Below are positions 14,469 to 46,727 of a DNA stretch of 64,000 bases, piece after piece; position 1 is the stretch's first letter, and every line of letters starts with the position of its first letter. This stretch comes from an uncultured Dokdonia sp. (GTDB lineage: Bacteria; Bacteroidota; Bacteroidia; Flavobacteriales; Flavobacteriaceae). Both the position numbers and the translations under genes were made by a program. The notes beneath the pieces are model-generated. The model saw only the letters and a list, made by a program, of their open reading frames with translations, was not told the DNA's origin and ran no database searches. Location of the stretch: positions 993 through 64,992 of the forward strand of contig CANNDF010000009.1 in NCBI GenBank assembly GCA_947503305.1, read 5' to 3'.

Positions 14469-15485
14469 TTAGGAGAGTATATCGCTCCAAAGGGTTTTGA
14501 CTTGAGTCCAATCAAATTTTTCTGCCTTTATTCTCGCATTTTTACTTATTGTAGACGCTAATACAGGGGTTTCTAGAAGTAATTGAATTTTTTCAGTAAA
14601 AGTTATAATATCTTTTGGAGGGCTTAATAGACCATCAATCTCATTTTCAATAAGAAATGGTATTCCCCCAACATCTGTAGATATAACGGGTAAGCCTATA
14701 GCCATGGCTTCAATGACACTAACGGGTGTATTATCAAAGTCTGTTGTACTTATAAATAGATCATGCGTAGTTCCCAATGCGATCCATTCTGCCTTTGATA
14801 ATTTTCCTGTAAATGTTACAGGGAGATTATTAGCTTTCGCGAAAGCGGTACACTCTTCATAACTCTCGTCCTTTCGAGGGCCTACCATTGTAAGTATTGC
14901 CTCAGGATATTTTTTGTGTAGTTCTTGTAACACTTTAAGGGCCATAATGGGATTATAAATGTGCGCAAAAGAGCGTACCCATAATAAAGTAGGAGTATAT
15001 TTTTCTCTTATTTTAAAAGGATAATTATCTATCTCTATACTATTAGGAATATGGATAACATTAGAAAAACCTTCTTCATTAAAAGCATTTAATAAATACC
15101 TTGATGGTGCAATATTTATTTTTGCATTATTAAAAAGTTTTTGAGCACTTTTTTGACTTCTTTTAATACGCATAGGTAAGTTACCGCCATGTAAAATAGG
15201 GATATAAGGAATTTTAAAAAGCCTACATAATTTTGCAACATATATCGCATACCAATAATTTGCTGTGCTATATGTATCTATCAGTACTGTATTTACCGTA
15301 TTCCTATTTGTAATTACCGACCATAACATATCTAATAATCGAAGCGCCTTATTACGTATATGTGAGGATACAATAACATGATAACCTTCTTCTTTGAGCG
15401 AATTACTCAAAGTATCAATAGTAGATACCGTATTACCTTTATGAGATAATGCGTTTCCTATGTATAGAAGACTTTTTCTTTTCAT
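14469..15485 (-). CDS. Glycosyltransferase, GT4-like (GT-B)
   Basis: N-terminus KSLLYIGNALSHKGN and C-terminal E-x7-E-like region VSVIEAMAIGLPVISTDVGGIPFLIENEIDG. Confidence 0.8.
   Translation of the reverse strand: MKRKSLLYIGNALSHKGNTVSTIDTLSNSLKEEGYHVIVSSHIRNKALRLLDMLWSVITNRNTVNTVLIDTYSTANYWYAIYVAKLCRLFKIPYIPILHGGNLPMRIKRSQKSAQKLFNNAKINIAPSRYLLNAFNEEGFSNVIHIPNSIEIDNYPFKIREKYTPTLLWVRSFAHIYNPIMALKVLQELHKKYPEAILTMVGPRKDESYEECTAFAKANNLPVTFTGKLSKAEWIALGTTHDLFISTTDFDNTPVSVIEAMAIGLPVISTDVGGIPFLIENEIDGLLSPPKDIITFTEKIQLLLETPVLASTISKNARIKAEKFDWTQVKTLWSDILS
14833..14846. repeat. Iterated palindrome, exact copy, inside the GT4 CDS
   Basis: Exact GCTTTCGCGAAAGC. It is read on the minus strand as A-F-A-K-A (CTAFAKANN). 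Confidence 0.95.
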
Positions 15486-16797
15486 GAACAACGTTTAGAA
15501 GGCATAGTGCGTATATAAATGCAGGAGCTGCAATACGCATAGACGAGTGATTGATCGTCAGAAACCAAAATCCTAATACAGAATAGAACAAATAATTACG
15601 TTTATTTTTAAAACGATAGATTAAAGGATATATTAATAAAATAGAAAGAGCAAGAATACCGGCAATACCGTGTTCTGACAATAACCTACTTATTTCATTA
15701 TGCGATGCAGCAGAGATTCCTAATTGTTCTTTGCGATATTCTTTTATCTTACCCACTCCTACTCCTGTTACTGGATTTGCATAAAAGGCCTCAAGTTCAG
15801 AATTAATCAATATACTTCTACCTGTCGACACATCTTCTTTAATTCTACCTGCGGCATCCTTATTTGCATATCGTTTGTCTATAAGTCCTTCTGTACGGGT
15901 AGAACTAAGAATCCATGTCAAACTTCCAGTAAAGACAATAATTAATGTTAATGCAGTAAGTCTGCCTCTCATTTTTGTTGAAGCTCCCTGAAAATAAATA
16001 AAAATAAACACAGCACTTATAATCACAGCAGTAAGTACGCCTCCTCTTGAAAAGGTAACTATAGCTCTATATCCTAATAAAGAAAGTAATCCTAAATTAA
16101 AAAGATTAACCGTAAGGTATTTTGTTTGAGTTACCAATTGTACAATGACCATAAAAATTCCTAATCCTAAAGCTGTAGCTACTTGATTAGGACCAAAACC
16201 TCCTGAAGTTGCAAAGTTAGAGCCCGTACCCGTTAATGCTTCTCTAGTATCTGGCGTATAAAAATATAAGTAGACTCCCATTGCTACTATAGGCATTAAT
16301 ATAGCCCAACAAACTTCTTGAAGCTTCTTATATGATATCTTCCTGTCTACACAATATAAAGCCGCTATCCCTAGACAAAAAGGACCACTTAAATTAAATA
16401 TCACCGCTTTTCTAAAGTCTGTAGCATAATCTAAGGTTATAGATGAAATTATAATTGCTGGTATGAGAAACAATAGATACAACCAATAAGGCCCTGATTT
16501 CCTGGAGGTTCCGCTAAGGAAAAGACCTAACAAAATAAAGAATATCACTCCATACTTACCTGCTTCATAAGCAAATGAAGCCGACGTCATTCTAAAAAAT
16601 ACTTCACCCCCAGCAATATAGCCCGCTGCAAGTAATGCCATGTCATTCCTATTTCCTTTTTTTAAAATTTCATAAAGAAAAAAAGCACAGGCTCCTAGAA
16701 AATATACCTTAGCAAAAGGCCTAAAAGCATACACAACTAATCCAATAATCACATGGATAATTAATAAAATGACGTATATGTTTTGTTTTTTAACCAA
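15439..16797 (-). CDS. O-antigen ligase / polymerase family (Wzy_C-type) integral membrane protein
   Basis: 452 aa with more than 10 predicted TM helices. It has a large loop and a SRGGVLTAVIIS..HNEISRLLSEHGIAG-type signature typical of the Wzy_C/WaaL family. Confidence 0.7.
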   Translation of the reverse strand: MVKKQNIYVILLIIHVIIGLVVYAFRPFAKVYFLGACAFFLYEILKKGNRNDMALLAAGYIAGGEVFFRMTSASFAYEAGKYGVIFFILLGLFLSGTSRKSGPYWLYLLFLIPAIIISSITLDYATDFRKAVIFNLSGPFCLGIAALYCVDRKISYKKLQEVCWAILMPIVAMGVYLYFYTPDTREALTGTGSNFATSGGFGPNQVATALGLGIFMVIVQLVTQTKYLTVNLFNLGLLSLLGYRAIVTFSRGGVLTAVIISAVFIFIYFQGASTKMRGRLTALTLIIVFTGSLTWILSSTRTEGLIDKRYANKDAAGRIKEDVSTGRSILINSELEAFYANPVTGVGVGKIKEYRKEQLGISAASHNEISRLLSEHGIAGILALSILLIYPLIYRFKNKRNYLFYSVLGFWFLTINHSSMRIAAPAFIYALCLLNVVHEKKKSSIHRKRIIS

Positions 16798-23593: not shown

Positions 23594-24741
23594 CCTTCTA
23601 TTATGCTTTTGTAAAAATCAATATTTTGTATTGCTATACGTATACTATCAAAAGTAGCTTCTACTTTTTTTCTACCTTCTTTTCCTAGCTGAATACATCG
23701 TGACTCGTCTTGAAATAAATGTAAAATAGTTTCTACGTATGCTTCTACATTATTAGGGTCAATCAAAAAACCATTTTTATCATGATCAATAAGCTCCTGT
23801 GCCCATCCATAATTCGTATTGACAACTGCTTTTTGAAGCGCCATAGATTCTATGGTTACCATTCCTAAGGTTTCTGCTAGTGAAGGGAAAGCACATACAT
23901 GTGCCTGCTTAAGATGTTCTTGGACCTCCATATAACTCACTTTTTCTAAGTAGTGAGTTTGTTTTTTTGCTTTTTCAGAAAGAGTAGCTTCTACCAATGA
24001 CCATGTAGAAGCACTACCCGTTTTAATATCTCCAGAATCACTTCCTATAAAGTACAAACTTGCATCTGGCTGTATTTCTACAATATGATTAAAAGCCTCT
24101 GCCAATTGAAATACGCCTTTTTTACGGATGACTGTTCCAACATTGACAATCCTATACGTCTCAAATTTTTCTGGATGATCGTTTTGGAACTTTGATAAAT
24201 CTAGTCCGTAATGAATGGTACGAACCTTCTCTTTAGGGATTTGAAAAAGACGAGCTGTTTCTACTCCTGCATATGTTGTAGGTGCAATATAATAAGAAGC
24301 GCTTTGAATCGCTTTTTGTTCTAAAAATTTATTTTTTGCCTTTTGAGGCCTCTTTTCCAATGTACAGAAATAAGTGTCACTCCCATGAAAACGTATAACT
24401 AATGGTACTTTGAACTTCATAAAAGCTGTTATTCCTGTCCAATCAGGTGCTTCAATAGCTTGTATCTTATCTATAGTTATATGCCTATTTACATAGGAGT
24501 TAATATATTTACGATGTAAATACCAGCCTCCAAAAGGATACGATTTATTTTTTATCAAATGCATTTTTGCTCCATCAGCTTCTAGAATAGCATCCTCTTT
24601 TTGCCCATAGATAAATAGAGATACCTTAATTCCTTTTCGCGTAAGCGTAACTACTAGATTCTTAATACTAGTTCCCATTCCAGCTGCTGTTTGCACTCTA
24701 GCATGTGGGTATTCTGGAGTAATAAATCCTAAATGCATCAT
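23590..24741 (-). CDS. Glycosyltransferase, GT4-like
   Basis: MMHLGFITPEYP..GMGTSIKNL N-terminus; FPSLAETLGMVTIESMALQKAVVNTNYGWAQELI C-terminal motif. Confidence 0.8.
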   Translation of the reverse strand: MMHLGFITPEYPHARVQTAAGMGTSIKNLVVTLTRKGIKVSLFIYGQKEDAILEADGAKMHLIKNKSYPFGGWYLHRKYINSYVNRHITIDKIQAIEAPDWTGITAFMKFKVPLVIRFHGSDTYFCTLEKRPQKAKNKFLEQKAIQSASYYIAPTTYAGVETARLFQIPKEKVRTIHYGLDLSKFQNDHPEKFETYRIVNVGTVIRKKGVFQLAEAFNHIVEIQPDASLYFIGSDSGDIKTGSASTWSLVEATLSEKAKKQTHYLEKVSYMEVQEHLKQAHVCAFPSLAETLGMVTIESMALQKAVVNTNYGWAQELIDHDKNGFLIDPNNVEAYVETILHLFQDESRCIQLGKEGRKKVEATFDSIRIAIQNIDFYKSIIEG

Positions 24742-26123
24742 GTAATGGTATTTTCTAATGCTTGCCAGATACGCTCAGAGGCTTTCTCTGCTGGCATTGT
24801 ATTGATCGTTGCAAACCAATCTTGTGTTGATTGCCGAATGGCTTCTGTATCTGTAAGAACTGTTACTATCTTTTTTTTAATATCCTCTTTTGAGTAAACC
24901 CATACTACAGCATCTGTCGTAGGCATTGATCTGAAATGTACATAATCATATACCTTATGTACATCCTTTTGAAGCGTAATATTTTTAGGATTATACTTAA
25001 TATATAAACAGGGTTTATCTTGACTTATATAATCAAAGACCATTGATGAGCCCAAATTAATAGCGCATAGTGTATGTGCTACTGTATTTGCTAGTAAACT
25101 CATATCCTCACGAAGGGGTAATATTGTATTCCATGCACCTCCTATTTTTTTCCATTGGGGAGCTATGGGATATATAATGGATTTATGTTTTTCTAATACC
25201 TTATCAAATCGATCTGAAAAATCTACCGGACATCGCCTGAATAGAATACCTAGATTCTTCCCTTCTTTATTAAGCTCTGAAATTGTAGTTGCAATATCAT
25301 CCAGATATATAGGATCATGCGGGGAAGTTGTAATATCATCTCCAGAAAAACATATATAATGTATATCAGAAGGTATGTTATGTTGTTTACAAAAATCTGC
25401 TTTAGAGACTAGTATACTTGTATCATAATGAGGTTCAAATTGTGGAGTTCCCGTTACATGAATCTGATTTTCCTGAATATATGGGTAATACTCCATAAGT
25501 TGCTGTTTCATAAAGTCACTCCAAACATAATAATAATCTGTTTCTACAACTAAGGTCGCTTTAGGCACATTATCCCATGAGAAAATAAAAGTTGCTGTGG
25601 GTATTCCTAGCTCCTGAGCTGCTAGTAAGGGCGCTATCGCATGTACGGGTCGTTGATTTGTGCAAAATACAATATCAGGGCGGGCTTCTTTTAATTGTGT
25701 TATGCACTTTTGAAAATATGGTGTAGAACGCTCTTTTTTAAGAATCTGTTTACGTAATTTTTGAACTTTTTCACCTGCATATCGGGTTTCTAAAAAATGG
25801 ATGGTCCAATTTTTAATTTTCTTTTTAAATGTATTATTTGATGCCTTAAACCGATAGCTATCATATACATGATCATTAAATTTCTGTTTAAAGTTAGTGA
25901 GTTCTATTTCTTTACGAGCTCTCTTAAACAGATCTGTAACAGTAGCGGCTTTTCCAGATAGTCGTTGTTCTTGTAATCCTAAATCTGAGAGATTAAATGG
26001 GGTATGATTCCAATATACAATATCCCAGTCTTTCTCCTTTCCAATAGAAGCAAAAGAGGTGTAGGCAAAATTCCTAAGTCCTATACCGTCTGGTAATACT
26101 ATATATATCTTTTTTTTAGACAT
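24738..26123 (-). CDS. Uncharacterised protein, possibly a GT-B-fold transferase
   Basis: 461 aa with a Rossmann-like start KKIYIVLPDGIGLRNF. The central block DIVFCTNQRPVHAIAPLLAAQELGIPTATFIFSWDN looks like an inter-domain GT-B region. I cannot assign a family from the sequence alone. Confidence 0.5.
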   Translation of the reverse strand: MSKKKIYIVLPDGIGLRNFAYTSFASIGKEKDWDIVYWNHTPFNLSDLGLQEQRLSGKAATVTDLFKRARKEIELTNFKQKFNDHVYDSYRFKASNNTFKKKIKNWTIHFLETRYAGEKVQKLRKQILKKERSTPYFQKCITQLKEARPDIVFCTNQRPVHAIAPLLAAQELGIPTATFIFSWDNVPKATLVVETDYYYVWSDFMKQQLMEYYPYIQENQIHVTGTPQFEPHYDTSILVSKADFCKQHNIPSDIHYICFSGDDITTSPHDPIYLDDIATTISELNKEGKNLGILFRRCPVDFSDRFDKVLEKHKSIIYPIAPQWKKIGGAWNTILPLREDMSLLANTVAHTLCAINLGSSMVFDYISQDKPCLYIKYNPKNITLQKDVHKVYDYVHFRSMPTTDAVVWVYSKEDIKKKIVTVLTDTEAIRQSTQDWFATINTMPAEKASERIWQALENTIT

Positions 26124-26126
26124 TGA

Positions 26127-27020
26127 TTAGGGGTTGGTGTTTAGATGGTCATCTGTAAAAATTTCTGTGAATTTTTGAGCTCCAGAATTATTAAGGTGAC
26201 TACAATTGTAAAAATAGTCATCTCTATCTATAAATAGTCTTGAATAATCTATAAGTGACGGTAATTGTATTTTGAGCTTATCCACATATGCTATATTTTG
26301 AGTATTCTTACAAAAGGGAGCTGTAAAAAATACGATCGTTATCTCTTCAGCTTCTGCAAAAGCTTTTATCTTCTCTATTACTGAGTTTTCTTTTGCAATC
26401 GTATCTGGCAATTTATACTGTAATACACTATTTTGTTTTTTATATTTTGGACTATATCCATTCATAAGATTATGCTTAGGAGCTTTTCCTATACTTGAAT
26501 TAAAAAACTCTCTAAATCCTATCTTATAATCAAACTTCATATATCTAAAAAAAGGGACGTATCGTAAACTCCAATAGTTTGGATCTCTTTCTTTAATGTA
26601 TGTATCTATAACTGGAACATTAATGTGTGGTATTAAATTACTTTTTAATATCTCTGATGTACCATCTATATTGTAGACATAATCTACTTGAATAAATACA
26701 GAATCTGTACTTATTTTTTTATGAGCTAGTAATTGCAACATTAAATAGTAATCATCGAGCTTACCTCCTTGTACACCTAAGTTGATAGCACTTTTTCCAG
26801 TCTTTTTTGTTATTAATGAAGCGTCTATAGTATTATCAACCCTGGAAGATCCTATAAAGACGTAGTCTATATTTTTTAAAGGAGTTGCAAGTAAGTTTGC
26901 AACTTTATTTCTAGGTACTGCATGCTTATATACATAACTATATATATAATCCATCATAAAAAGCAATAGACATACAGCGATAAGGGTAGTAATGATATAT
27001 ATTAAAAATCGCTTCATCAA
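26127..27020 (-). CDS. Membrane-anchored SGNH/DltD/AlgJ-like protein (distant paralogue 3)
   Basis: N-terminal TM helix, a FIGSSR block (Ser nucleophile-like) and C-terminal YFYNCSHLNNSGAQKFT (NxxH where the paralogues have DxxH). Translationally coupled to the MBOAT gene. Confidence 0.55.
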   Translation of the reverse strand: MMKRFLIYIITTLIAVCLLLFMMDYIYSYVYKHAVPRNKVANLLATPLKNIDYVFIGSSRVDNTIDASLITKKTGKSAINLGVQGGKLDDYYLMLQLLAHKKISTDSVFIQVDYVYNIDGTSEILKSNLIPHINVPVIDTYIKERDPNYWSLRYVPFFRYMKFDYKIGFREFFNSSIGKAPKHNLMNGYSPKYKKQNSVLQYKLPDTIAKENSVIEKIKAFAEAEEITIVFFTAPFCKNTQNIAYVDKLKIQLPSLIDYSRLFIDRDDYFYNCSHLNNSGAQKFTEIFTDDHLNTNP

Positions 27021-28450
27021 AACTGGAAATAAATAAAACTTTGATGTTCTGAAAACACTCCAAATACAATAATCATTAAGAGTACAATCACAATTTTAAC
27101 CATATCAAACTTTCCATATAAAGGAGTTTCTCGCTGCCTATAAACCCACTCTACGCCTAGAAAAAATGCAATTAACAATAGCATTTCAACACTGTAGCGT
27201 TCTATATTTAAATATTGTTTTTTAAATTCAAGGTTTGTAAAAAGGCGTTCCAAATAAGCTAGACTATCGGTGATACTAGAAGACCTGAAAAACACCCATG
27301 CAAGACACGTAAGCACAAAGGTGCTTCCTATTTGAAAAATTTCTTTGATACTAGGAAAAAATCGCCCTCCAGCAACTATATCTATATTATTACGGTTTTG
27401 TTTTAAAAGTAATAAAGGCAGGAAATATAATGCATTTAATGCCCCCCAAGCTACAAATGTCCAGTTGGCTCCATGCCAAAATCCACTTACGATAAAAATG
27501 ACAAATACGTTACGTATTTGTTGTGTTTTACTTCCTTTAGACCCCCCAAGTGGGATATATAGATAATCTCTAAACCATGTGGACAAGGAAATATGCCAGC
27601 GTCTCCAGAACTCTGCAATATCTCTAGAAAAATAGGGGTAATTAAAATTACGCATCAAATCAAACCCAAGTAATCTTGCAACTCCAATAGCTATATTAGA
27701 ATATCCTGCAAAATCTCCATATATCTGAAATGCAAAATATACTGCACCCAGCAATAAAGTAAGAGAGTTCATGCCTTCGTAATTTGTAAAAATTGCATTC
27801 ACATAGGTTGCACAACTATCTGCAATTACTACTTTTTGAAAAAGTCCCCATATAATTAAGTGTACCCCACTTTTTGCAGTCTCAAAATTAAAAGTACGTG
27901 GTATTTTAAATTGCGGTAATAAATGGGATGCTCTTTCAATAGGGCCAGCTACTAGCTGAGGGAAAAATGCAACATAGGTGGCAAATTGTACAAAACTAGA
28001 GGTTGGTTCCATTTTTTTACGATATACATCAATAGTATAACTTAATGTCTGGAATGTATAAAAAGAAATCCCTACGGGAAGAATAATCTGTAACGAACTA
28101 GATTGCATTTCTACTCCTAGCATTTGCCATGCATCTACCCAACTTTCAATAAAGAAGTTTGCATATTTAAAAAAACCTAATAGACTTAAATTGAAGACTA
28201 AACTACATGCCAATAACCATTTCCGCTTTTTTGTGTCCTGTTGTTTCTGTAAGGCAAGTCCAACAAAATAATCTACAATCGTACTTAAAATAATAAGACT
28301 TAAAAAGCGATAATCCCACCAGCCATAAAAAACATAACTCGCTACTAAAACTAGTAGGTTTTGCGACTTTAAGTGACGTTTAAAAACGAACCAATAAAGT
28401 ATAAATACTATGGGTAAAAATGCTGCAAATGTCAATGAGTTAAAAAACAT
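27017..28450 (-). CDS. MBOAT-family membrane O-acyltransferase (AlgI/DltB-like)
   Basis: 477 aa, multi-TM. It has the conserved MBOAT block FWRRWHISLSTWFRDYLYIPLGGS and FIVSGFWHGANW with the catalytic-type His. Confidence 0.9.
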   Translation of the reverse strand: MFFNSLTFAAFLPIVFILYWFVFKRHLKSQNLLVLVASYVFYGWWDYRFLSLIILSTIVDYFVGLALQKQQDTKKRKWLLACSLVFNLSLLGFFKYANFFIESWVDAWQMLGVEMQSSSLQIILPVGISFYTFQTLSYTIDVYRKKMEPTSSFVQFATYVAFFPQLVAGPIERASHLLPQFKIPRTFNFETAKSGVHLIIWGLFQKVVIADSCATYVNAIFTNYEGMNSLTLLLGAVYFAFQIYGDFAGYSNIAIGVARLLGFDLMRNFNYPYFSRDIAEFWRRWHISLSTWFRDYLYIPLGGSKGSKTQQIRNVFVIFIVSGFWHGANWTFVAWGALNALYFLPLLLLKQNRNNIDIVAGGRFFPSIKEIFQIGSTFVLTCLAWVFFRSSSITDSLAYLERLFTNLEFKKQYLNIERYSVEMLLLIAFFLGVEWVYRQRETPLYGKFDMVKIVIVLLMIIVFGVFSEHQSFIYFQF

Positions 28451-28457
28451 CTATTCT

Positions 28458-29420
28458 TTATTTATTTAGTATTTTTTTTATTTCAGTATTTACTTTTTTT
28501 GAAAACTTCTCGGCTCCATTTTTATTAAGGTGAAAAGAGTCATAAAAATAATCTTTATTCATTGAGATCGTATCTTCAGAAAAATCCAAAAAATAAACTG
28601 TATCATGATGTGTTGCGTATTCAAGTAATTTATCATGGACCATTGGTTTAAGATTTGATATCACTTGCAAACGTTCTTTATATTCTGGTGCCCATATCAA
28701 AACCACCTTAATATTATCTTTCCGTAATTGCTCATAAAAAGTTATCGATTCTGAAACTCCTTTCATGTATGCTTGCGCATTTGAAGCATCTGTATTTAAT
28801 CTTTTAAACCGTTCAATATTTATACTGTCTCTTTGAAAATTTTGTTCTCTAGGGTAATAACCATCATAAGAAGGCTTTATAGAATATTTTTTTCCAAAAA
28901 ATGAACGTATCCCTTTTAGTAAGTATTCATTAAACTTATTATATTTTAATAAAGGGACGAAAGGATACAGGCTATAATTCTCATCTATTACAGAGAGTCC
29001 TTCTTGTAATATAGCGTTGTTTATATATGGAATAAACTGAAATTCATCTGGGATATATTGTGCCTCTAAAAAATGTGTCAAATCAACATTTTGAACAACC
29101 ATTTTTGAGGTTTTATTTGATTGTTTATACAACTCGTATTTAATCTTTTGTAAGTTGTAAGGAGCTGCATTAAGGCTAAGATTATATGCGTTTAATTCCA
29201 ATCCCTTTTGGAGTATTTTAGGGTCGTAAGAAACATAAGCTCTTGAAGATCCTAAAATAAGGATGTCTGCATTTAACTGCCCTCTAACGATTCGATTCCA
29301 TTCTCTATATGTACTTACCTCATTTCGCATAAGTCCTCTATCCGAGATATACTGGAGTCCCGCAGCAAATAACCATAGTACCAATAGTATTTTTAGAATA
29401 TATAGTATAAATACTCTCAT
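28458..29420 (-). CDS. Membrane-anchored SGNH/DltD/AlgJ-like protein (paralogue 1)
   Basis: N-terminal TM helix, ILILGSSRAY block I and C-terminal YFYDSFHLNKNGAEKFSKK (DxxH block V). Clearly homologous along its full length to the 29420-30400 product. Confidence 0.6.
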   Translation of the reverse strand: MRVFILYILKILLVLWLFAAGLQYISDRGLMRNEVSTYREWNRIVRGQLNADILILGSSRAYVSYDPKILQKGLELNAYNLSLNAAPYNLQKIKYELYKQSNKTSKMVVQNVDLTHFLEAQYIPDEFQFIPYINNAILQEGLSVIDENYSLYPFVPLLKYNKFNEYLLKGIRSFFGKKYSIKPSYDGYYPREQNFQRDSINIERFKRLNTDASNAQAYMKGVSESITFYEQLRKDNIKVVLIWAPEYKERLQVISNLKPMVHDKLLEYATHHDTVYFLDFSEDTISMNKDYFYDSFHLNKNGAEKFSKKVNTEIKKILNK

Positions 29421-30400
29421 TATTTTAGAGTCTTATTTTCTATCATCAAACTATCAATCTTTACAGCGAGTTTTTTGGAAAAAGATTTGGCCCCTTTTGC
29501 ACTTAAATGGAAGCTATCATAGTAATTACTCTCATCATATGATATTGTATCTGTAGCTAGGTTTAAAAAATGAATATTAGAATTACTCTGAGCAAACTGT
29601 TTAAGTTTTTTTGAGTAATACGTTCTTAAATTTTTATTGGCTTCCAACCGTTTTATAAACTCAGGAGCCCATACAAAAATGGTTACTATTGATTGATCGG
29701 ATAATGAGGTGGCAAAATCAGTCGTATGTTTATATCCTGATTCAAACTTATCCGTATAGTTTATAGATGTATCGAGTCTTCTAAAGCGTTCTATATTTAA
29801 ACTATCTAATCTAAATTTTTTATTCTTTGGACAGAAACCATCTATCAATTCTATTTCATTATAGACCTTATTAAATAATAAGGTTCGAAGACTACGTTTC
29901 AGGTATTCACGATTTGTGTTGTATTTTAATAATGGTACTATTGTATAGTATTTATATTTTTCATCTATTATAGGCAATGTTTCTTTTATGATATCATTCG
30001 AAAAATAAGAGATGTATTGATACTCTTCAAAAACTTTATGAGAAGCTATAAAGTGTGATAAATCAACATTTTGAATTACCACTTTTGGTTTTACATTAGT
30101 ATCTACATAGAGGTCATATTTCATTTTTTGAATGTTATATCCGCCTCCATTTGCACTTAAATTATATGTTTTAATACCTAGATTGTCAGTTAGTATTGTA
30201 GGATCATAACCAGTATAAGCCCTAGAAGAGCCTAAAATTATAGACTTTGCATTTATTGCTCCAGAATAAATCTGGGTCCATTCTTTTAATATCCCTTTTT
30301 CAAAGCGTTTCATTCCCAGGTCTGCCATGTATTGAATCGTATAGCCCAAAACACATGTCAAAACAAGTAAACTGATGATATAGATTAAAAATCGGCGCAT
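29420..30400 (-). CDS. Membrane-anchored SGNH/DltD/AlgJ-like protein (paralogue 2)
   Basis: N-terminal TM helix, IILGSSRAY and C-terminal YYDSFHLSAKGAKSFSKK. Shares LNIERF(K/R)RL, VPLLKYN and WAPE(Y/F) blocks with paralogue 1. Confidence 0.6.
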   Translation of the reverse strand: MRRFLIYIISLLVLTCVLGYTIQYMADLGMKRFEKGILKEWTQIYSGAINAKSIILGSSRAYTGYDPTILTDNLGIKTYNLSANGGGYNIQKMKYDLYVDTNVKPKVVIQNVDLSHFIASHKVFEEYQYISYFSNDIIKETLPIIDEKYKYYTIVPLLKYNTNREYLKRSLRTLLFNKVYNEIELIDGFCPKNKKFRLDSLNIERFRRLDTSINYTDKFESGYKHTTDFATSLSDQSIVTIFVWAPEFIKRLEANKNLRTYYSKKLKQFAQSNSNIHFLNLATDTISYDESNYYDSFHLSAKGAKSFSKKLAVKIDSLMIENKTLK

Positions 30401-30422: not shown

Positions 30423-31112
30423 CTATTCCAGAAGCCTTTCTGCTTTTTCCCAATCTTCCAATGTATCAATATTTACATGGTTCTTTGAATCTGATTCAAC
30501 ATACGTAATTGTATTTCCATAAAAGGAATGTTGCTGTTGTATGACGTCTGTTTTTGTGATATAGATACCTCCATCTCTTATATATGCTGTTGGGAGTTCT
30601 TGCCTTCTCTTAATAATTTCTTTTTCTCCCGTAGCAATCTGTAGATTTCCTGAAGCATTAGGTTCAAAGACCCAGTGTGGGTTGTATTGATGTGGCACAG
30701 GAAGTACCGAGATCAATGTGTCTGTATGAGCATCCATAAACCTTTTAATAGCCTTATCGATATCATTTGCTGTTCTAAAAGGAGTTGTTACTTGTAACAA
30801 ACAGATTGCATCAAATTTTTCTCCAAGTTGCTCCATCTCTATAAGGGTATGTTGAACTACTTCTAAAGAACCAGCGCTATCGGTTGCCAGGTGATCAGGT
30901 CTCTTAAAAGGAACGCGTACTCCAAGCTGTTTAGCAATTTCTATGAGAGATGAGTCTTCAGAAGAAAAAACTACTGTTGTCAGGGATGTTGCTTTTAATG
31001 CCGCTTCAATAGTATATTGCATAAGGGGTTTTCCTCCAAGTATTTTTTTATTCTTATCTGGAATTCCTTTACTCCCTCCCCGAGCGGGTATAATACCTAA
31101 TATCTTCATCAA
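30423..31112 (-). CDS. neuA: CMP-nonulosonic acid synthetase (acylneuraminate cytidylyltransferase family)
   Basis: 229 aa. ILGIIPARGGSKGIPDKN is the CTP-transferase 3 signature. Confidence 0.85.
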   Translation of the reverse strand: MMKILGIIPARGGSKGIPDKNKKILGGKPLMQYTIEAALKATSLTTVVFSSEDSSLIEIAKQLGVRVPFKRPDHLATDSAGSLEVVQHTLIEMEQLGEKFDAICLLQVTTPFRTANDIDKAIKRFMDAHTDTLISVLPVPHQYNPHWVFEPNASGNLQIATGEKEIIKRRQELPTAYIRDGGIYITKTDVIQQQHSFYGNTITYVESDSKNHVNIDTLEDWEKAERLLE

Positions 31113-32269
31113 TAGGTAATGGTTTTATGAAATCGAAGTGTTATTTCTGATAATATTTGAGCAATTTTGACACCACTATCCCCAGATCCATATATCGTAC
31201 TTTGCTCATTTTTAGGGTGTTGTAATTGTGATTTTATAGCATCTTCAATCGCTTTAATATCATAGGATACATCCATCACATTATCACCTCTTAATCTTCT
31301 ATTTTGACGAGTCCCTATATTTACTACGGGAACTCCTAAATAAGAACACTCTCGTATTCCTACACTACTATTCCCTATCAAACATTTGCTATTAATCAAT
31401 AGTCTTAAAAAATCAAAAGGCTCCATATTCTTAAAGAATCGTATGTTCTTAGGTTGATGTTTTTCTCTATAGGATCGGATTCCATTTGATGTACCATCGG
31501 CTCCTGCATCTACATTAGGCCAAAACCAAAAAGTTGGAATCCCTAGTCCATCAATAACTTCTAGTGTTTTTAAAACATCTTTTTTTGCCTGATGATATTC
31601 GGTGGTCACAGGGTGTTGCATCACAACAATATAATCCTCAGCAGGATCTACCATAGCACCTACTCCACCGTATTTTTTAATGGGATCATAATCAAGATTA
31701 GGATGTTCCATTACTTCTGCAGCAAGATCAATAGAGGGGCATCCTGTATTAAAAACATAGTTTTCATCTTCACCCATCTTAAGGACACGATTCTTTGCAT
31801 CTTCTGAAGTCACAAAATGAATATCTGCCAGTTTTGTATTTGCATGACGTACTTTCTCATCTATATTCCCAGTAACTTCCCCTCCCTGAAGATGAATTAA
31901 TGGTATATTTTGATAGGCTGCAGCAATTGAAGTAGCAATCGTTTCAAAACGATCTGCAATAGTTAATACCGCATCAGGTTGTAAATTATAAAAGACATTT
32001 GCTAGCTCCATTACTCCTAGACCTGTCGTCTTTGCCATTGCAGTTTTATTTTCTCCTTCAAGAACCATAAAGACTTTTTCATTGATAATAAATCCATCTT
32101 TTTCAATAAAGTTTACGGCATTTCCATAACGATCTAATAATGCAGATCCTGCTACTACTAGTTGTAATTCTAATAATGGATGTGTATCTATAGCCTGTAG
32201 GACTGTTTTTACTCTACTATAACTAGGCCTGGCTGTTATGACAGCACAAATTTTACGTTTCTCTTTCAT
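31109..32269 (-). CDS. neuC: UDP-N-acetylglucosamine 2-epimerase, hydrolysing type (NeuC-like)
   Basis: 386 aa with ICAVITARPSYSR, LHLQGGEVTGNIDEKVRHA and GNSSVGIRE, as in NeuC/LegG-type epimerases. Confidence 0.85.
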   Translation of the reverse strand: MKEKRKICAVITARPSYSRVKTVLQAIDTHPLLELQLVVAGSALLDRYGNAVNFIEKDGFIINEKVFMVLEGENKTAMAKTTGLGVMELANVFYNLQPDAVLTIADRFETIATSIAAAYQNIPLIHLQGGEVTGNIDEKVRHANTKLADIHFVTSEDAKNRVLKMGEDENYVFNTGCPSIDLAAEVMEHPNLDYDPIKKYGGVGAMVDPAEDYIVVMQHPVTTEYHQAKKDVLKTLEVIDGLGIPTFWFWPNVDAGADGTSNGIRSYREKHQPKNIRFFKNMEPFDFLRLLINSKCLIGNSSVGIRECSYLGVPVVNIGTRQNRRLRGDNVMDVSYDIKAIEDAIKSQLQHPKNEQSTIYGSGDSGVKIAQILSEITLRFHKTITY

Positions 32270-32271
32270 AA

Positions 32272-33267
32272 TTATATTACAGCCTCTTCAGTTAAAAACT
32301 CCCAAGCTTCAAGATCCTTAGTCAATGCCTTTCCTATCACTTCTTTATATTGAGATGCTAGAATTCCGTATCCTTTTGGTTTTTTTGCTTCCAAATCTTC
32401 AAACGTAAGTATATGTCCCTGAGGTAATGATTTATTTACTGCTAATGATTTTTCAAAAATATTTTTCACTTTCGCGAAAGCGCTATTATCATTTTTATTG
32501 ATCGGATTTTTAAGTGCTTTTGAAACTGCATGGACTCCTTCTACCAACTCTTTTGTTTGATTGATGGTAAGTGATGAGGACACATCTGGGCCAAACATTG
32601 CTTTATCAAAGACTACATGAAACTCTAATAGTTTTGCACCTAATGCTGTAGCAGCAATCCCGGTAGCAATTTGTGCTGAATGATCTGAAAATCCTACTGG
32701 GATTTGATATCGTTCTTTAAGTTCGGAAATAACATTAAGTCCATATTGCTCTGGGGCAGTAGGATAACTTGTTGTACACTGTAGTATTGAAACCTCAGTC
32801 TGTGCTTCTTTTAAAATTGCCATGGTCTCATCCAACTCCTCGAAAGAACTCATTCCACTAGAGATAATTATAGGTTTACCTGTAGCAATCACTTTTTTAA
32901 GTAATAAATGATTATTTACTTCACCACTTCCTATCTTATATCGGTCTACCCCTGCTACTTCAAGAATATCTACAGCTGCATTGCTGAATGGGCTACTTAT
33001 AAAATCCAACCCTACATCCTTACAATGTTTTCCTATAGCGATCCATTGTTCTTGTGTAAACTCCATGCGTTTCCAATAGTCATAACGTGTAGCATCCTGC
33101 GTAGAAAAATGAACCCTAAAAGGTTCGTAAATACTACTTTCAGCATGAGCAATATGTGTTTGGAATTTAATGGCATGTACTCCGGTTGTTGCAACAGCAT
33201 CTATATAAGCATGCAGCGTTCCTAGACTTCCGTCATGTGCTTGCCCTATCTCTGCAATTATATACAT
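32272..33267 (-). CDS. neuB: N-acetylneuraminate (nonulosonate) synthase family protein
   Basis: 331 aa with MYIIAEIGQAHDGSLG, KFQTH, KIGSGE, SDHS and a C-terminal SAF-like domain. Confidence 0.9.
   Translation of the reverse strand: MYIIAEIGQAHDGSLGTLHAYIDAVATTGVHAIKFQTHIAHAESSIYEPFRVHFSTQDATRYDYWKRMEFTQEQWIAIGKHCKDVGLDFISSPFSNAAVDILEVAGVDRYKIGSGEVNNHLLLKKVIATGKPIIISSGMSSFEELDETMAILKEAQTEVSILQCTTSYPTAPEQYGLNVISELKERYQIPVGFSDHSAQIATGIAATALGAKLLEFHVVFDKAMFGPDVSSSLTINQTKELVEGVHAVSKALKNPINKNDNSAFAKVKNIFEKSLAVNKSLPQGHILTFEDLEAKKPKGYGILASQYKEVIGKALTKDLEAWEFLTEEAVI
32468..32481. repeat. Iterated palindrome, 13/14 copy, inside neuB
   Basis: The plus strand reads ACTTTCGCGAAAGC. The coding strand reads GCTTTCGCGAAAGT, giving A-F-A-K-V (SAFAKVKN). 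Confidence 0.85.
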
Positions 33268-42495: not shown

Positions 42496-43693
42496 AGATA
42501 TTAGTAAACAGTGTTAGCCATTTTTCTATATTAACCTTATCTCCAAAAATTGCATCCAAGCTTATATGAATATCTCTTATATCCTTGGGACTGTCCGCTA
42601 CTACATGAGGGATAAGATCTCGTAATTCATTAAAGTTTTCAAAAAAATACATTGGAGCATTGGTCTTACGATATACTTCGTAAGGTAACCATTTGCCAGC
42701 AATTACTTTACTTCCACTATACAACGCTTCTGTTACGGTACCACTCATCGCATCACTTACAGGAGCATAAATTAATATATCTATATCTGAGCGTAATGCG
42801 ACTAGATCTTCGCCCACACAATACTTTTTATGCACTACATATGGAATAGGGTATTGTCGAAGATATCTTTCCAACTCTTTTTCATACTTCTCATCTAAGC
42901 CATATGTTAGAAACAAATAAATACAAAATTGTTCTGGATGCTCAAACCCTTTAAGAGCTTCCAGTATGGATATATGATTATTCTCTTTATAACCATTATG
43001 CCCTACCATGATCGTAATAGGACCTTTTTTTAGTTTTTTGTCTATACTAATTTTCTTAAAAGAATCTACATAGAATGCATTTTGTAAAAACTTAACAACA
43101 TGAATTTTGTTTTTTACAGCACTCCCAAAACGCTTTTCTAATTCCCTCTGTAAAGTTTCATTTTGAATAGTAAGCGCTTTTGCATTTTGCAAACATACTT
43201 TCTTAAATGCATCTACCTGAGGATTTGTTTGTCGTAATAAATCAGAACCCCAAAATGAAACAACAATAGGAGTATTCCTGATAAAAACCATTTTCTTAAG
43301 GTGCGTCAGACTTGCAAAATGACAATGTATACATGACATCCCTAGTTGATCATATGCTTTTGCTTTAAGAAAAAGAGTGAAATAAGGTTTTAAATGTTGA
43401 GCAGCATATCGTATCCCATGATATTTAACCTCTAAGAAAAGTAGTTTCCATAATAAGCTATGACTTAGAAAGGCAATGTACGTTCCCAATTTTTGAAATG
43501 CTTTCATTTTTTTAACAGGGATATCTATTAATGTAAGTGCCTTACTTTCTATAATAGCATCCCCTAGATGTTCTATATCTTCTGTATATACTTTTAAGTC
43601 AGGATTTTCTTCTTTGAGTCCATCGTACAAATTGATCAAAAAATTTGATTGTGTTTTACCTATAGCAAGTATGTTCAGAGCTTTACGACCCAT
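42488..43693 (-). CDS. Putative GT56-like glycosyltransferase (WecF / 4-alpha-L-fucosaminyl-transferase-like)
   Basis: By-eye alignment to my recollection of E. coli WecF: VVSFWGSDLL vs HIWGADLY, ITIMVGHNGYKENNHISILEAL vs [22 protein letters not shown], and a similar C-terminal block. The assignment is from memory only. Confidence 0.45.
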   Translation of the reverse strand: MGRKALNILAIGKTQSNFLINLYDGLKEENPDLKVYTEDIEHLGDAIIESKALTLIDIPVKKMKAFQKLGTYIAFLSHSLLWKLLFLEVKYHGIRYAAQHLKPYFTLFLKAKAYDQLGMSCIHCHFASLTHLKKMVFIRNTPIVVSFWGSDLLRQTNPQVDAFKKVCLQNAKALTIQNETLQRELEKRFGSAVKNKIHVVKFLQNAFYVDSFKKISIDKKLKKGPITIMVGHNGYKENNHISILEALKGFEHPEQFCIYLFLTYGLDEKYEKELERYLRQYPIPYVVHKKYCVGEDLVALRSDIDILIYAPVSDAMSGTVTEALYSGSKVIAGKWLPYEVYRKTNAPMYFFENFNELRDLIPHVVADSPKDIRDIHISLDAIFGDKVNIEKWLTLFTNIYA

Positions 43694-45423
43694 TATGTAC
43701 TGTATTGATGTGAGCCCCCATGGTATTTTACATATGTGTATGCTACATGAAATGCTAAAAATTGCGCATCCGGATGGTTCATTTCTGATTGCTCTTTAAT
43801 TGCATTTTTTAAAACAATATCTGATATATGTGGTAATAAATCTGCAATTACATCAGAATACCACGTTGCCATATCATCAGAAAACCAATCAGATTTCCCT
43901 AATAAACTTTTTACAGTAAGGTCCAACCCAAAAGATTTGAGCTGTTCTATCTGAATCCTATTTTTTATACGTCGGATCCATTTATTATTGCCAGGCCTAG
44001 GTAGTGTACGTGTCTTTGTTTTCTCGTAATAATATTTTCCAGCATTCGGATGATACTTTTCAATCCAGGCACTATACAGTTTATGTTTGTGGCGATAAGG
44101 CAATGGTAACGAAAAACAAAAATCAAGGACTTCCTGATATAAAAAAGGAGAAACCGATTCTGTATGCGGGTATATCAACCAATTACCATTCATTGTACCA
44201 TTATATACGTGATTATAAAACTGGGCTATCTCTACATTCTCATACATTGTACATTCTTGTTTCCATATAGAAGCTACATGACTTGAATACAAACCCTCAT
44301 GATAGCTTCGTTTTGATACAAAATCTTGATGTACCTCATAAGGATGCAGGGTATTACCTAAAACTGCATCACCCACTTGCCCAGAATGTAGTATCCCATA
44401 TTTACTAAAATCAAGCTTGTTATACATAGAAGGTATTTGGCTAGTAAGATGATAAAAAACCAATCCCGAATTTTGTTTGAAAACGGGTTCAATATTTTTT
44501 AAATGATCAAAATTCTCTATATAATATACATGATTTTTTAAGCTTAAATCTTTGGAAATATGATGTGCAATCGCATCATCCCAATACCCTTTTGTAGAAA
44601 AAGTAAATCTTCCTATGTTTTTATATCCTGTATTTGCACCTGCAATTACTGTCATTCTAGAATCTAGACCTCCACTCAAACCACATAAATGGTCATAACC
44701 ATATTCCAAATCTTTATCAAATTGTAAACGAATAGCTTGATCAAACACCTCTTGAAATCCATCTATAGCAGCATTAAAAGAAATATTGGAAGACCTTTGC
44801 TGTAACTTGTAATACTCATGCTTTTTAACCTGAGACCTTGTCACTTCAAGATAACATCCGGGAGTCAGCTTTTTAAGCTCTTTATACAATGTTCTATCTC
44901 CTAGAACATTTCCAAAACACAATAACGAATAATAAGCTTCTATATCTACTGTTAAGGAAGCTTCTTCCTGTTTGCAGGTATTGACTAGGAATTCAAAATT
45001 AGAACATCCACAAAAACCCTTGGATATATCTTCGGTATAGTAAATAGGTTTTGAGCTTGTAAGATTGGTATATATATATTGCGTTTGTGTATTCTTATCA
45101 TATATGATCATACTAAAGTCACCCCGCATTTCCTTGACAAAAGATGCTCCATATTGATTCCAAAGCTTTTCTAACAATACCTCAGTGCTATGCTGAGCAT
45201 GGCTATTTTTTAATTGCTGAAGATTAATAACCACCCCATCAATACAAAAAAAACAACTGTCAGATTCATAAAAGACTTTGTCGTCTTTAAACTTAGAATT
45301 AAGATTTCTAAAAATATGTACTCCAGCAGATACATCTCTATAAGAATTATATAAATATGCCTCGCCTTTTTCCAGATCTGGTGTAATATATTTAAACCCT
45401 TGGGAAGAAAACAATCCGAACAT
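43693..45423 (-). CDS. Asparagine synthase (AsnB)-family protein lacking the N-terminal Cys nucleophile
   Basis: 576 aa with the PP-loop motif LSGGLDSRMTV of the synthetase domain. The N-terminus is MFGLF where AsnB-type enzymes have MCG. Confidence 0.75.
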   Translation of the reverse strand: MFGLFSSQGFKYITPDLEKGEAYLYNSYRDVSAGVHIFRNLNSKFKDDKVFYESDSCFFCIDGVVINLQQLKNSHAQHSTEVLLEKLWNQYGASFVKEMRGDFSMIIYDKNTQTQYIYTNLTSSKPIYYTEDISKGFCGCSNFEFLVNTCKQEEASLTVDIEAYYSLLCFGNVLGDRTLYKELKKLTPGCYLEVTRSQVKKHEYYKLQQRSSNISFNAAIDGFQEVFDQAIRLQFDKDLEYGYDHLCGLSGGLDSRMTVIAGANTGYKNIGRFTFSTKGYWDDAIAHHISKDLSLKNHVYYIENFDHLKNIEPVFKQNSGLVFYHLTSQIPSMYNKLDFSKYGILHSGQVGDAVLGNTLHPYEVHQDFVSKRSYHEGLYSSHVASIWKQECTMYENVEIAQFYNHVYNGTMNGNWLIYPHTESVSPFLYQEVLDFCFSLPLPYRHKHKLYSAWIEKYHPNAGKYYYEKTKTRTLPRPGNNKWIRRIKNRIQIEQLKSFGLDLTVKSLLGKSDWFSDDMATWYSDVIADLLPHISDIVLKNAIKEQSEMNHPDAQFLAFHVAYTYVKYHGGSHQYST

Positions 45424-45440
45424 ATAATTAATGATAAAAC

Positions 45441-46727
45441 TTAAGTCTCTATTGAAAAGTTATCTATTGTACAATCAAGTATTACCTCTTGTGCAGATCT
45501 ATTAATTTTACCCGTTTTCCAATAATCACCAGGTAAAACATTAATCATACTAAATTTTTCTTTCACATGTAAAAAATCTGAAGGAGATGTAGATCCCAAA
45601 CTAGAGAAAACTTTTAATGAGTAAATACCCCCTCTTAAGGCCAATCTAGATAAATTCCAATCAAAGTATCCATTACTATGAATTTTATCTAGTACTATAC
45701 CGCTTTCAATAGATGAAAGTCCAGAAATTAAATTTCCATATGGATCATTTATACTAAAACCCCAGAAAAATTCTTTTGTTTTAATATCTATTTTTGATTT
45801 ATAGTAAATTCGAATTGTAGCATCTTCACCAGATATCAAGGCATTTACTAATTTCCCTTTAGAATCAATTAAATCAACATTAGTAAATGAAAAAATTCCA
45901 TTAAACTTGTTGTCTTCATCATTTTTATCACTATCCGTAACAGAAAGATAGTCCTGTACTACATCTTCTATTTCTCCTGTAGAATATATCCCGCCGTTTT
46001 TAAGTAAAATCCCTCTTGTACAGAGTGATTTTACAGCCGCCATATTATGACTTACAAATAATATAGTACGTCCCCCATCTTTTGAGATATCCTGCATCTT
46101 ACCAATGGCCTTTTTCTGGAACTCGGCATCTCCTACAGCTAGAACTTCATCTATCACCAAAATTTCAGGTTCTAAGTGTGCCGCTACAGCAAAGGCAAGT
46201 CGTACCCGCATCCCACTACTATAGCGTTTTACTGGTGTATCTATATAGCCTTCACATCCTGAAAAGTCTACAATCTCATCAAGTTTGGAAGCAATTTCGG
46301 CTTTATTCATTCCCAGAATAGCACCGTTTAAAAATATATTTTCTTTCCCAGTAAGCTCAGGATGAAAGCCGGTCCCTACTTCCAATAAAGAAGCAATACG
46401 GCCTCTTGTTTTTATAGAACCCGTAGTAGGACTCGTGACTCTGGATAATATCTTAAGTAAAGTAGACTTCCCTGCTCCATTTTTTCCTATAATGCCTAAT
46501 ACTTCTCCTCGTTTTACCTCAAAATTGATATCCTGAAGCGCCCATACATAATCATCATTTGCCCGCACACTCCTATCATTTGCAGTCCCTACTTTAAGAA
46601 ATGGATCTTCTTTACCTCGTACCAAATGCCACCAACGATTCAAATCATCTTTAAGAGATCCAGAACCCACCAGACCTAGTCGATACTGCTTAGAAATATT
46701 TGTTGCTTTTAATATGATATCACTCAT
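45441..46727 (-). CDS. wzt: Polysaccharide-export ABC transporter ATP-binding protein with a C-terminal extra domain (Wzt-like)
   Basis: Walker A GKNGAGKST, signature YSSGMRVRLAF and Walker B ILVIDEVLAVGD in the first ~250 aa. An extra beta-rich domain of about 170 aa follows (FSFTNVDLIDSKGK..ATIRIYYKS). Confidence 0.85.
   Translation of the reverse strand: MSDIILKATNISKQYRLGLVGSGSLKDDLNRWWHLVRGKEDPFLKVGTANDRSVRANDDYVWALQDINFEVKRGEVLGIIGKNGAGKSTLLKILSRVTSPTTGSIKTRGRIASLLEVGTGFHPELTGKENIFLNGAILGMNKAEIASKLDEIVDFSGCEGYIDTPVKRYSSGMRVRLAFAVAAHLEPEILVIDEVLAVGDAEFQKKAIGKMQDISKDGGRTILFVSHNMAAVKSLCTRGILLKNGGIYSTGEIEDVVQDYLSVTDSDKNDEDNKFNGIFSFTNVDLIDSKGKLVNALISGEDATIRIYYKSKIDIKTKEFFWGFSINDPYGNLISGLSSIESGIVLDKIHSNGYFDWNLSRLALRGGIYSLKVFSSLGSTSPSDFLHVKEKFSMINVLPGDYWKTGKINRSAQEVILDCTIDNFSIET

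Follow-up and report, generated by a model that had tools for sequence, protein, structure and literature searches.

One MBOAT and three DltD-like SGNH partners: a putative glycan O-acylation module in a polysaccharide locus of an uncultured Dokdonia

This work concerns a stretch of 64,000 nucleotides from an uncultured Dokdonia sp. (Flavobacteriaceae; GenBank assembly GCA_947503305.1, contig CANNDF010000009.1, positions 993 to 64,992; hereafter the window), in which a gene for a membrane-bound O-acyltransferase (MBOAT) is packed together with three homologous genes, here called A, B and C, for membrane-anchored proteins of the SGNH type. The four genes very probably constitute an MBOAT-SGNH module for glycan O-acylation. 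The explanation we favour, with a probability of roughly 0.6, is that this module acts extracytoplasmically on the Wzm/Wzt-type glycan of the surrounding locus, with one MBOAT serving three partners in parallel. The type of system is known; the one-to-three stoichiometry, the partner families lacking a curated model and the recurrent link to sialic-acid-type pathways set this module apart. The genes and their motifs are as follows.

Partner A, 29420-30400, minus strand, 326 amino acids: N-terminally anchored SGNH-fold protein, A-type
Partner A motifs, minus strand: GSSR codons 30221-30232 (Ser59, the predicted nucleophile); DSFH codons 29507-29518
Partner B, 28458-29420, minus strand, 320 amino acids: A-type paralogue
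Partner B motifs, minus strand: GSSR codons 29241-29252; DSFH codons 28530-28541
MBOAT, 27017-28450, minus strand, 477 amino acids: PatA/AlgI-type by sequence; FIYFQF (with Tyr474) codons 27020-27037
Partner C, 26127-27020, minus strand, 296 or 297 amino acids: C-type anchored SGNH-fold protein
Partner C motifs, minus strand: GSSR codons 26841-26852; NCSH codons 26196-26207

An initial annotation of this DNA had described one MBOAT gene flanked by three homologous genes, and this arrangement is borne out: the four open reading frames (ORFs) all lie on the minus strand at the coordinates it gave, the MBOAT is recognised by PF03062, and pairwise comparisons and cross-family hidden Markov model (HMM) searches link the three partners. 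Only the start of C probably has to be moved, from the TTG at 27020 (297 amino acids) to the ATG at 27017 (296 amino acids), since the latter agrees with the database entry P0010 (296 amino acids). The genes are closely spaced. A and B share a TAATG overlap, B and the MBOAT gene are separated by 7 nucleotides, and the ATG of C at 27017 overlaps the MBOAT stop codon (TGATG). The stretch is contained in no public sequencing run. An exact database look-up of protein B returned no record, probably because of a differing gene call, and its orthologue was found instead by way of the relative P0002. An unsupported 97-amino-acid ORF (29263-29556, plus strand) runs antisense over the A/B junction; in such AT-rich sequence it most likely arose by chance.

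The MBOAT matches PF03062 at 106.2 bits (cut-off 27), and its best sequence match among solved structures is DltB (6bug, E 1.2e-27). FWRRWH286 of the MBOAT aligns with the FWNRWH motif of DltB (His289) and GFWH326G with GFWHG (His336); in DltB, His336 is the active-site histidine and His289 a second conserved one (PMC11035591). Both His286 and His326 are invariant in an alignment of related MBOATs (A4). The alignment with DltB extends as far as residue 375 of 477, beyond which follows a C-terminal extension of about 100 residues that ends in S-F-I-Y-F-Q-F. The FIYFQF (residues 472-477) is a general trait of these enzymes: each of the 102 related MBOATs collected has FxYxxF as its very last residues, in 99 cases as FIYFQF. 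In non-Dlt bacterial MBOATs, two additional transmembrane helices bear a C-terminal FxYxxF "acyl shuttle" (Anderson et al. 2025, PMC12148441); the PatA of C. jejuni auto-acetylates the Tyr of this motif with acetyl-CoA as donor, and the acetylated hexapeptide FIYANF can be used as donor by the PatB of N. gonorrhoeae (PMC12148441). None of DltA (adenylating enzyme), DltC (carrier protein) and DltX (microprotein) is encoded in the glycan locus. From the FIYFQF tail and the absence of these three genes, the MBOAT is classed by its sequence as a PatA/AlgI-type enzyme with a fused acyl shuttle and not as a DltB-type enzyme. By analogy, its donor would then most likely be acyl-CoA and the acyl group most likely acetyl.

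The resemblance of the MBOAT to DltB, together with that of the partners to DltD described below, might also be read as a Dlt-like pair that D-alanylates its acceptor with aminoacyl groups taken from a carrier protein. This is extremely improbable and effectively refuted by membership tests: the MBOAT scores 153 bits against the DltB equivalog TIGR04091, far below its cut-off of 375; the locus has no dlt genes; the DltD models (PF04914/LTA_DltD) give no match to the partners at E<=1 in Pfam or NCBIfam; and DltB lacks the fused FxYxxF tail.

Full-length comparison of partners A and B gives 41% identity (E 4e-92), and C shares 24% identity with A (E 2e-9) and 24% with B (E 2e-16). Separate A-type and C-type family HMMs score the opposite type at 61-80 bits, indicating that A/B and C are truly homologous. 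Each partner possesses only one strongly hydrophobic segment (residues ~3-23, with Arg/Lys on its N side), which forms a long helix in the models of A and C, in agreement with the membrane anchor proposed by the initial annotation. The extreme N-terminus, M-(K/R)-x-F-(L/I)-x-Y-I, enters this helix and is kept in 66 of 82 partners of all subtypes; in A and C the stretch (R/K)RFLIYII is near-identical despite 24% overall identity. To judge from this conservation, the N-terminus may be an MBOAT-docking or membrane-insertion signal.

The AlphaFold models of A (predicted local distance difference test, pLDDT, 88.4; predicted template modelling score, pTM, 0.88) and C (pLDDT 94.7, pTM 0.90) are confident, and both adopt the SGNH alpha/beta/alpha fold, the property of predicted structures on which the earlier proposal had been made to depend; for B, the same fold is predicted from its 41% identity to the modelled A. 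The proposed likeness to DltD also stands. In Foldseek searches against the PDB, the top match of both models is DltD 6o93 (E 5.8e-6 for A and 3.5e-5 for C), and further DltD structures (3bma, 6pfx and 7dxm) were matched as well, followed by platelet-activating factor acetylhydrolase, TesA and GDSL lipases, with PatB at E ~2e-3 to 6e-3; SGNH-family matches have probabilities of ~1.0 and E-values of 1e-6 to 1e-3. The A-type profile reaches the DltD sequence at E 0.058, with YDSFHL aligned to ADTIHL of the DltD DxxH block. DltD consists of one N-terminal transmembrane helix and an extracellular SGNH domain with Ser74, Asp373 and His376, and its catalytic pocket is the docking site of the DltX FxYxxF peptide (PMC13653941). 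Judging by the models and this analogy, A, B and C would work like short DltD/PatB-type acyl-acceptor transferases. They represent two uncharacterised DltD-like SGNH subfamilies, the A-type and the C-type.

The Ser and His blocks noted in the initial annotation are present in all three partners. The G-S-S-R block lies at about residues 57-60, and its Ser59 is conserved in 157 of 157 A-type and 103 of 103 C-type relatives; the block V histidine (His298 in A, H275 in C) is kept in 156/157 and 103/103, respectively. Gly57 is invariant or nearly so in both subfamilies, and G57, S58, S59, R60, N80 and H275 are all invariant among the C-type relatives. The C-terminal block had been given as Y-x-(D/N)-x-x-H but reads (Y/F)-Y-(D/N)-x-x-H-L-x-x-x-G-A-x-x-F. 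In the models of A and C, strands 1, 2 and 3 are followed by Ser59, Asn80 and Asp113 at the places of blocks I, II and III, and the His, at the place of block V, lies ahead of the last helix, so that the SGNH blocks come in the usual succession; in A, B and C alike the order is the canonical, non-permuted Ser...(D/N)xxH.

The residue three before the His is Asp in A and B (DSFH) and Asn in C (NCSH), from which the initial annotation had concluded that C may be inactive or specialised. This suspicion is not supported. By family alignment, Asn is the majority state at this position in both subfamilies (113/157 A-type and 64/103 C-type relatives) and the Asp of A and B the minority state (40/157 and 37/103), so the Asn of C is not in itself a sign of inactivity. 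Active SGNH enzymes that lack the block V Asp are on record, among them CE2 enzymes with Ser-His dyads, and 14 of 26 lack the Asp (PMC9487903). The idea of C as a degenerate copy was rejected, Asn being the family norm and the ratio of non-synonymous to synonymous substitution (dN/dS) of C being 0.091. Two further positions stand out in the partner families: Asn80 is almost invariant, and Asp113, part of the QNVD/IQVD block that follows strand 3, is retained in 132/157 A-type and 102/103 C-type relatives. The acid or the oxyanion arrangement in the active site of the partners may be non-canonical, as has been reported for PatB and PatB1.

We propose the following route for the acyl group. The MBOAT would take it from cytoplasmic acyl-CoA, by analogy with PatA/PatB, and His326 would catalyse, at the membrane's outer face, the esterification of the enzyme's own Tyr474 in FIYFQF. 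This acyl-Tyr would then dock in the active site of A, B or C and acylate Ser59, and the acylated partner would in turn acylate a hydroxyl of the glycan once this has been exported. In this scheme C would be the ancestral, cognate partner, and A and B, from another DltD-like subfamily, would have been recruited to its MBOAT. Most likely the three would work in parallel, each on its own acceptor position or sugar, although for parallel action at distinct sites, taken as a claim of its own, we put the odds at even.

In comparison with a relative of ~87% identity, the dN/dS ratios of A, B and C are 0.098, 0.154 and 0.091; those of the neighbouring glycosyltransferases lie at 0.06-0.12. All three partner genes are thus subject to purifying selection, and the module is intact, real and maintained by selection. 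A recent duplication as the origin of A and B was ruled out. The best relative of B, P0114, is closer to B (44% identity) than A is (41%), which makes B an old paralogue. These figures bear on the view that A, B and C are redundant or condition-specific isoenzymes which acylate the same acceptor position, as a matter of dosage or of growth conditions. A and B belong to the same subtype with 41% identity, and our results do not separate their acceptors. Against redundancy stand the age of the two paralogues, the retention of both under purifying selection in the ~87% relative, the occurrence of A without B in Dokdonia ponticola, and the uneven divergence of A and B, whose identity falls from 54% in the N-terminal core (residues 45-115) to 39-40% in the middle/cap region and the C-terminal core. 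We therefore consider isoenzymes of this kind unlikely.

How often an MBOAT has more than one such partner in Bacteroidota, a question raised by the initial annotation, was surveyed in 80 MBOAT-centred loci of species-representative genomes from 80 other species (L-numbers here and below denote single loci), the best 80 of at least 598, which comprise 85 MBOAT clusters; partners were counted by HMM, and the counts depend on the HMM thresholds. One MBOAT with one partner is the rule (49/85 clusters), and 25 clusters have one MBOAT with no partner detected. One MBOAT with two partners occurs in four clusters (C-MBOAT-C in L029, L030 and L049; MBOAT-C-C in L031), two MBOATs with three partners in one (L017), three MBOATs with three partners in two (L027 and L073), and two MBOATs with zero, one or two partners in four. 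Extra partners are thus found in ~6% of the clusters (5/85), and one MBOAT with three partners in none of the 85; the 3:1 layout was met only in the window and its close relative. The apparently partnerless MBOATs include 26 with an ORF directly downstream, of which 19 match a broadened partner profile, and most of these downstream ORFs encode an N-terminal hydrophobic helix followed by GDSx/GxSx and DxxH blocks, suggesting that one anchored SGNH partner per MBOAT is near universal in the clade.

C is the widespread member of the set. The initial annotation had taken it for a divergent extra; however, a C-type gene directly follows each of the closest relatives of the window MBOAT (82, 65, 61 and 60% identity), which identifies C, on sequence comparison, as the common, native and probably ancestral cognate partner type and A and B as add-ons. 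A word-indexed homologue search returned 9 A-type against 103 C-type relatives, the latter mostly from Flavobacteriaceae. The A-type is not a rare family, an impression given by those 9 matches and overturned by an exhaustive HMMER search that recovers thousands; at E<=1e-3 the partner superfamily comprises 13,319 representative clusters, of which 833 remain at E<=1e-30. The syntenic locus of D. ponticola reads neuB-neuC-neuA-A-MBOAT-C-p461-GT4, with a single A-type gene (p461 is described below), and the metagenomic relative of ~87% identity has neuA-A-B-MBOAT (L088) and MBOAT-C-p461 (L087), its B copy being 84% identical to that of the window. Other layouts are MBOAT-A-C (L002), MBOAT-A-MBOAT-C (L004) and MBOAT-C (Gillisia, L006). 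Complete MBOAT-partner pairs stand in tandem, two or three at a time, in L004 (GCA_000464355.2), L027 and L073; these loci duplicate the MBOAT instead of sharing it, the opposite of the solution in the window.

The same layouts are informative on whether the partners depend on each other. C-type genes are the sole partner of an MBOAT in many loci and A-type genes in L040, L059 and L080, and in L004, L027 and L073 the A-type and the C-type each have an MBOAT of their own. Such layouts speak against a compulsory A-to-C relay and favour transferases that work independently and in parallel. A relay or obligate complex in the style of alginate (AlgI to AlgJ/AlgF to AlgX), with one partner alone modifying the polymer, does have precedent: two SGNH-like proteins are needed with one MBOAT in alginate acetylation, and cellulose acetylation takes four proteins (PMC4148444). 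Moreover, A-type and C-type genes are found side by side near MBOATs in L001, L002 and L004. We nevertheless regard such a relay as quite improbable, because a C-type gene alone with an MBOAT is the commonest layout, because A, B and C share one anchored architecture whereas AlgJ is anchored and AlgX a soluble two-domain protein, and because no AlgF-like gene is present in A-B-MBOAT-C, where the packed junctions leave no space for one.

A division of labour into transferases and esterases, in which one paralogue or two would take O-acyl groups off for editing or regulation, as Ape1 or DltE do, is likewise unlikely. SGNH folds serve transferases and esterases alike, many esterases are among the structural matches of A and C, the peptidoglycan O-acetylation operon has three genes (PMC12148441), and DltE is a D-alanine esterase integrated with DltD (PMC13653941). 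All three paralogues, however, have a DltD-like membrane anchor and lie beside the MBOAT; both subfamilies occur elsewhere as the sole partner of an MBOAT, where a transferase is needed; and no esterase-specific feature was found in A, B or C, although none could be put to a test.

Parallel transferases are therefore retained as the preferred arrangement, and the divergence of A, B and C together with the independence of the modules elsewhere makes it plausible that the three recognise different acceptor positions or sugars. Three acceptor specificities would plausibly fit a glycan assembled by ~17 glycosyltransferases and further modified by methyl- and pyruvyl-transferases. Several points weigh against this interpretation as a whole. 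The Foldseek TM-scores are modest (0.41-0.45, query-normalised), and likeness of fold does not tell transferases from esterases. Searches of Pfam and NCBIfam yielded no curated HMM above threshold for A, B or C, and ten relatives are likewise without an above-threshold family; A reaches 26.7 bits against DUF1574 (PF07611; cut-off 29.1) and P0008 20.7 bits, A further shows faint matches to PF19040 (at its C-terminus) and Lipase_GDSL (E ~0.07), and B and C have no Pfam or NCBIfam match, DUF1574 included. Sequence searches of the PDB with A and C, by single sequence and by profile, gave nothing significant, with only noise for C. Distinct acceptor specificities are argued solely from divergence and from module independence in other genomes, and the acyl group could be other than acetyl.

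The module is part of a glycan locus bounded by housekeeping genes, whose other relevant features are listed here.

Enclosing glycan locus, 13033-51736 (~39 kb), minus strand, between housekeeping genes
Wza/Wzc-like pair, 48486-51736
Wzm, 47584-48459
Pyruvyl transferase, 46720-47565
Wzt with Wzt_C domain, 45441-46727
AsnB-like amidotransferase, 43693-45423
NeuB-family nonulosonate synthase, 32272-33267, minus strand, below equivalog cut-off
NeuC, hydrolysing UDP-GlcNAc 2-epimerase, 31109-32269, minus strand, above TIGR03568 cut-off
NeuA-like cytidylyltransferase, 30423-31112, minus strand, below equivalog cut-off
461-amino-acid protein (p461), 24738-26123, minus strand, directly downstream of C, no family above threshold
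Wzy_C/O-antigen-ligase-like membrane protein, 15439-16797

In addition to the genes listed, the locus encodes the glycosyltransferases already mentioned, two methyltransferases and an initiating sugar transferase. Post-export modification of the glycan in the periplasm suits such a locus. It combines an ABC export pair (Wzm, Wzt) with a Wza/Wzc-like pair and a Wzy_C-like protein.

The module lies next to the neuA-like gene, and O-acetylation of a nonulosonic acid (NulO) had been suggested from this adjacency. The association has gained comparative backing, although the acceptor sugar is not established by it. Of the 21 loci that have a strong C-type partner, 13 contain NulO-type genes no more than 10 kb away, as against 3 of the other 59 (Fisher p = 2.5e-7), an association that is overstated because the loci are phylogenetically non-independent. 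The MBOAT-C cassette, moreover, recurs beside two different sialic-family pathways. NeuB and NeuC of the N-acetylneuraminic acid (Neu5Ac) type are found in the window, L008 and L011, with similar scores in L028, which lay outside the family scan. Three Flavobacterium loci with two C-type partners (L017, 3162-6225; L029, 5541-7602; L031, 6307-8338) encode instead a cytidylyltransferase fused to a KdsC/Kdn-9-phosphate-type phosphatase and a short NeuB-like synthase without the C-terminal domain, and their pathway looks, by sequence, like a Kdn-type one, unlike the NeuB and NeuC of the window. The exact nonulosonic acid made in the window is not fixed, since NeuB and NeuA fall below their equivalog cut-offs.

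The neighbouring p461 weakly matches NF046086 (the BFO_1060 family, 3.7e-7), and in 16 of the 80 surveyed loci relatives of it are encoded no more than 10 kb from the MBOAT. BFO_1060 belongs to a transferase family of T. forsythia for pseudaminic/legionaminic acid derivatives (PMC5420450), and from this weak match we infer that p461 is a candidate nonulosonic-acid transferase. Such an assignment fits a cassette that would make, transfer and O-acylate a sialic-family sugar, and the comparative data suggest, without proving, a link to such a sugar. It is a tentative and rather doubtful further step to regard the module as a sialate/nonulosonate O-acetyltransferase in which one shuttle Tyr feeds three transferases acting, after export, on different hydroxyls of a sialic-family residue, or of this residue and its neighbours. 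If true, the enzymology would be unrelated to that of NeuD, NeuO, OatC and OatWY, and the locus would offer a natural one-to-many test case for partner selection by acyl-shuttle MBOATs. An acceptor of this kind would also mean a new post-export route to the O-acetylation of bacterial sialic acids, a modification that affects recognition by phages, sialidases and host lectins.

How MBOAT-SGNH pairs work mechanistically is understood for peptidoglycan and teichoic acids, and almost nothing is known of them in Bacteroidota, where they are apparently very common, as indicated by the at least 598 related loci and the 13,319 partner clusters without a curated model. One MBOAT with three partners from two subfamilies allows one to ask how the C-terminal acyl-Tyr arm picks its acceptor enzyme, and the same locus provides a way into how the site specificity of glycan O-acetylation is encoded. 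Our literature searches on MBOATs in Flavobacterium or O-antigen contexts and on MBOAT/SGNH neighbourhood surveys in Bacteroidetes found nothing specific.

Among the known systems, PatA/PatB of Neisseria and Campylobacter is similar in having a separate MBOAT and SGNH partner, the canonical Ser...DxxH order and acyl-CoA as the presumed donor (PMC12148441), and its MBOAT ends in the same kind of FxYxxF motif (FIYANF in N. gonorrhoeae, FIYFQF here). PatB possibly has an N-terminal membrane helix, to judge from the AlphaFold model in PMC12148441, and such a helix is also present in A, B and C. The differences are that PatA has one partner and the MBOAT of the window three; that A, B and C stand outside the PatB family, with no HMM match to DUF459 and a Foldseek E-value of only ~3e-3; and that patA and patB belong to a peptidoglycan O-acetylation operon with ape1, as opposed to the polysaccharide locus here. 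DltB/DltX/DltD shares with the module the single N-terminal transmembrane helix and extracytoplasmic SGNH domain of the partner, the Ser...DxxH order and both conserved histidines of the MBOAT. It differs in that the shuttle is fused to the MBOAT in the window, that DltA, DltC and DltX are missing there, that the host is a Gram-negative member of the Bacteroidota, and that DltD is ~100 residues longer than A, B or C.

The alginate (AlgI/AlgJ/AlgF/AlgX) and cellulose (WssFGHI) systems resemble the module in using one MBOAT with more than one SGNH-like protein for an exported polysaccharide (PMC4148444). The initial annotation had likened the partners to AlgJ and AlgX, a comparison that does not hold. 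AlgJ and AlgX are circularly permuted, with the DxH upstream of the GTSYS Ser and a Tyr in place of the Block III Asn (PMC4148444, PMC9487903), and belong to another family, whereas A, B and C have the canonical order; membership is ruled out by this order, by the lack of any HMM match to AlgX/AlgJ (PF16822) or DHHW, and by the absence of these proteins from the top 50 Foldseek matches of A and C. Accessory proteins of the AlgF/WssG type are absent from the module as well, and alginate acetylation requires all of its components, whereas A-type and C-type genes occur singly with an MBOAT in other genomes.

If the acceptor is a nonulosonic acid, NeuD, NeuO, OatC, OatWY, Orf11 and CASD1 would have the substrate in common with the module; homology to known sialate O-acetyltransferases was neither detected nor expected. 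None of the bacterial sialate O-acetyltransferases covered by a 2021 review is of the MBOAT-SGNH type, and the word MBOAT is absent from it. The animal enzyme CASD1 likewise has a luminal catalytic domain, a covalent acetyl-enzyme intermediate and a multipass membrane domain (PMC4510713, PMC13043746). The AT3-SGNH enzymes (OatA, OafA/OafB) follow the same logic as that proposed here, in which a membrane domain loads a Tyr with the acyl group at the outer face and an SGNH domain delivers this group to a glycan (PMC12148441). Their membrane domain is of the AT3 family and is fused 1:1 to the SGNH domain; in the Dokdonia module it is an MBOAT, and the partners are encoded by separate genes in a ratio of 1:3.

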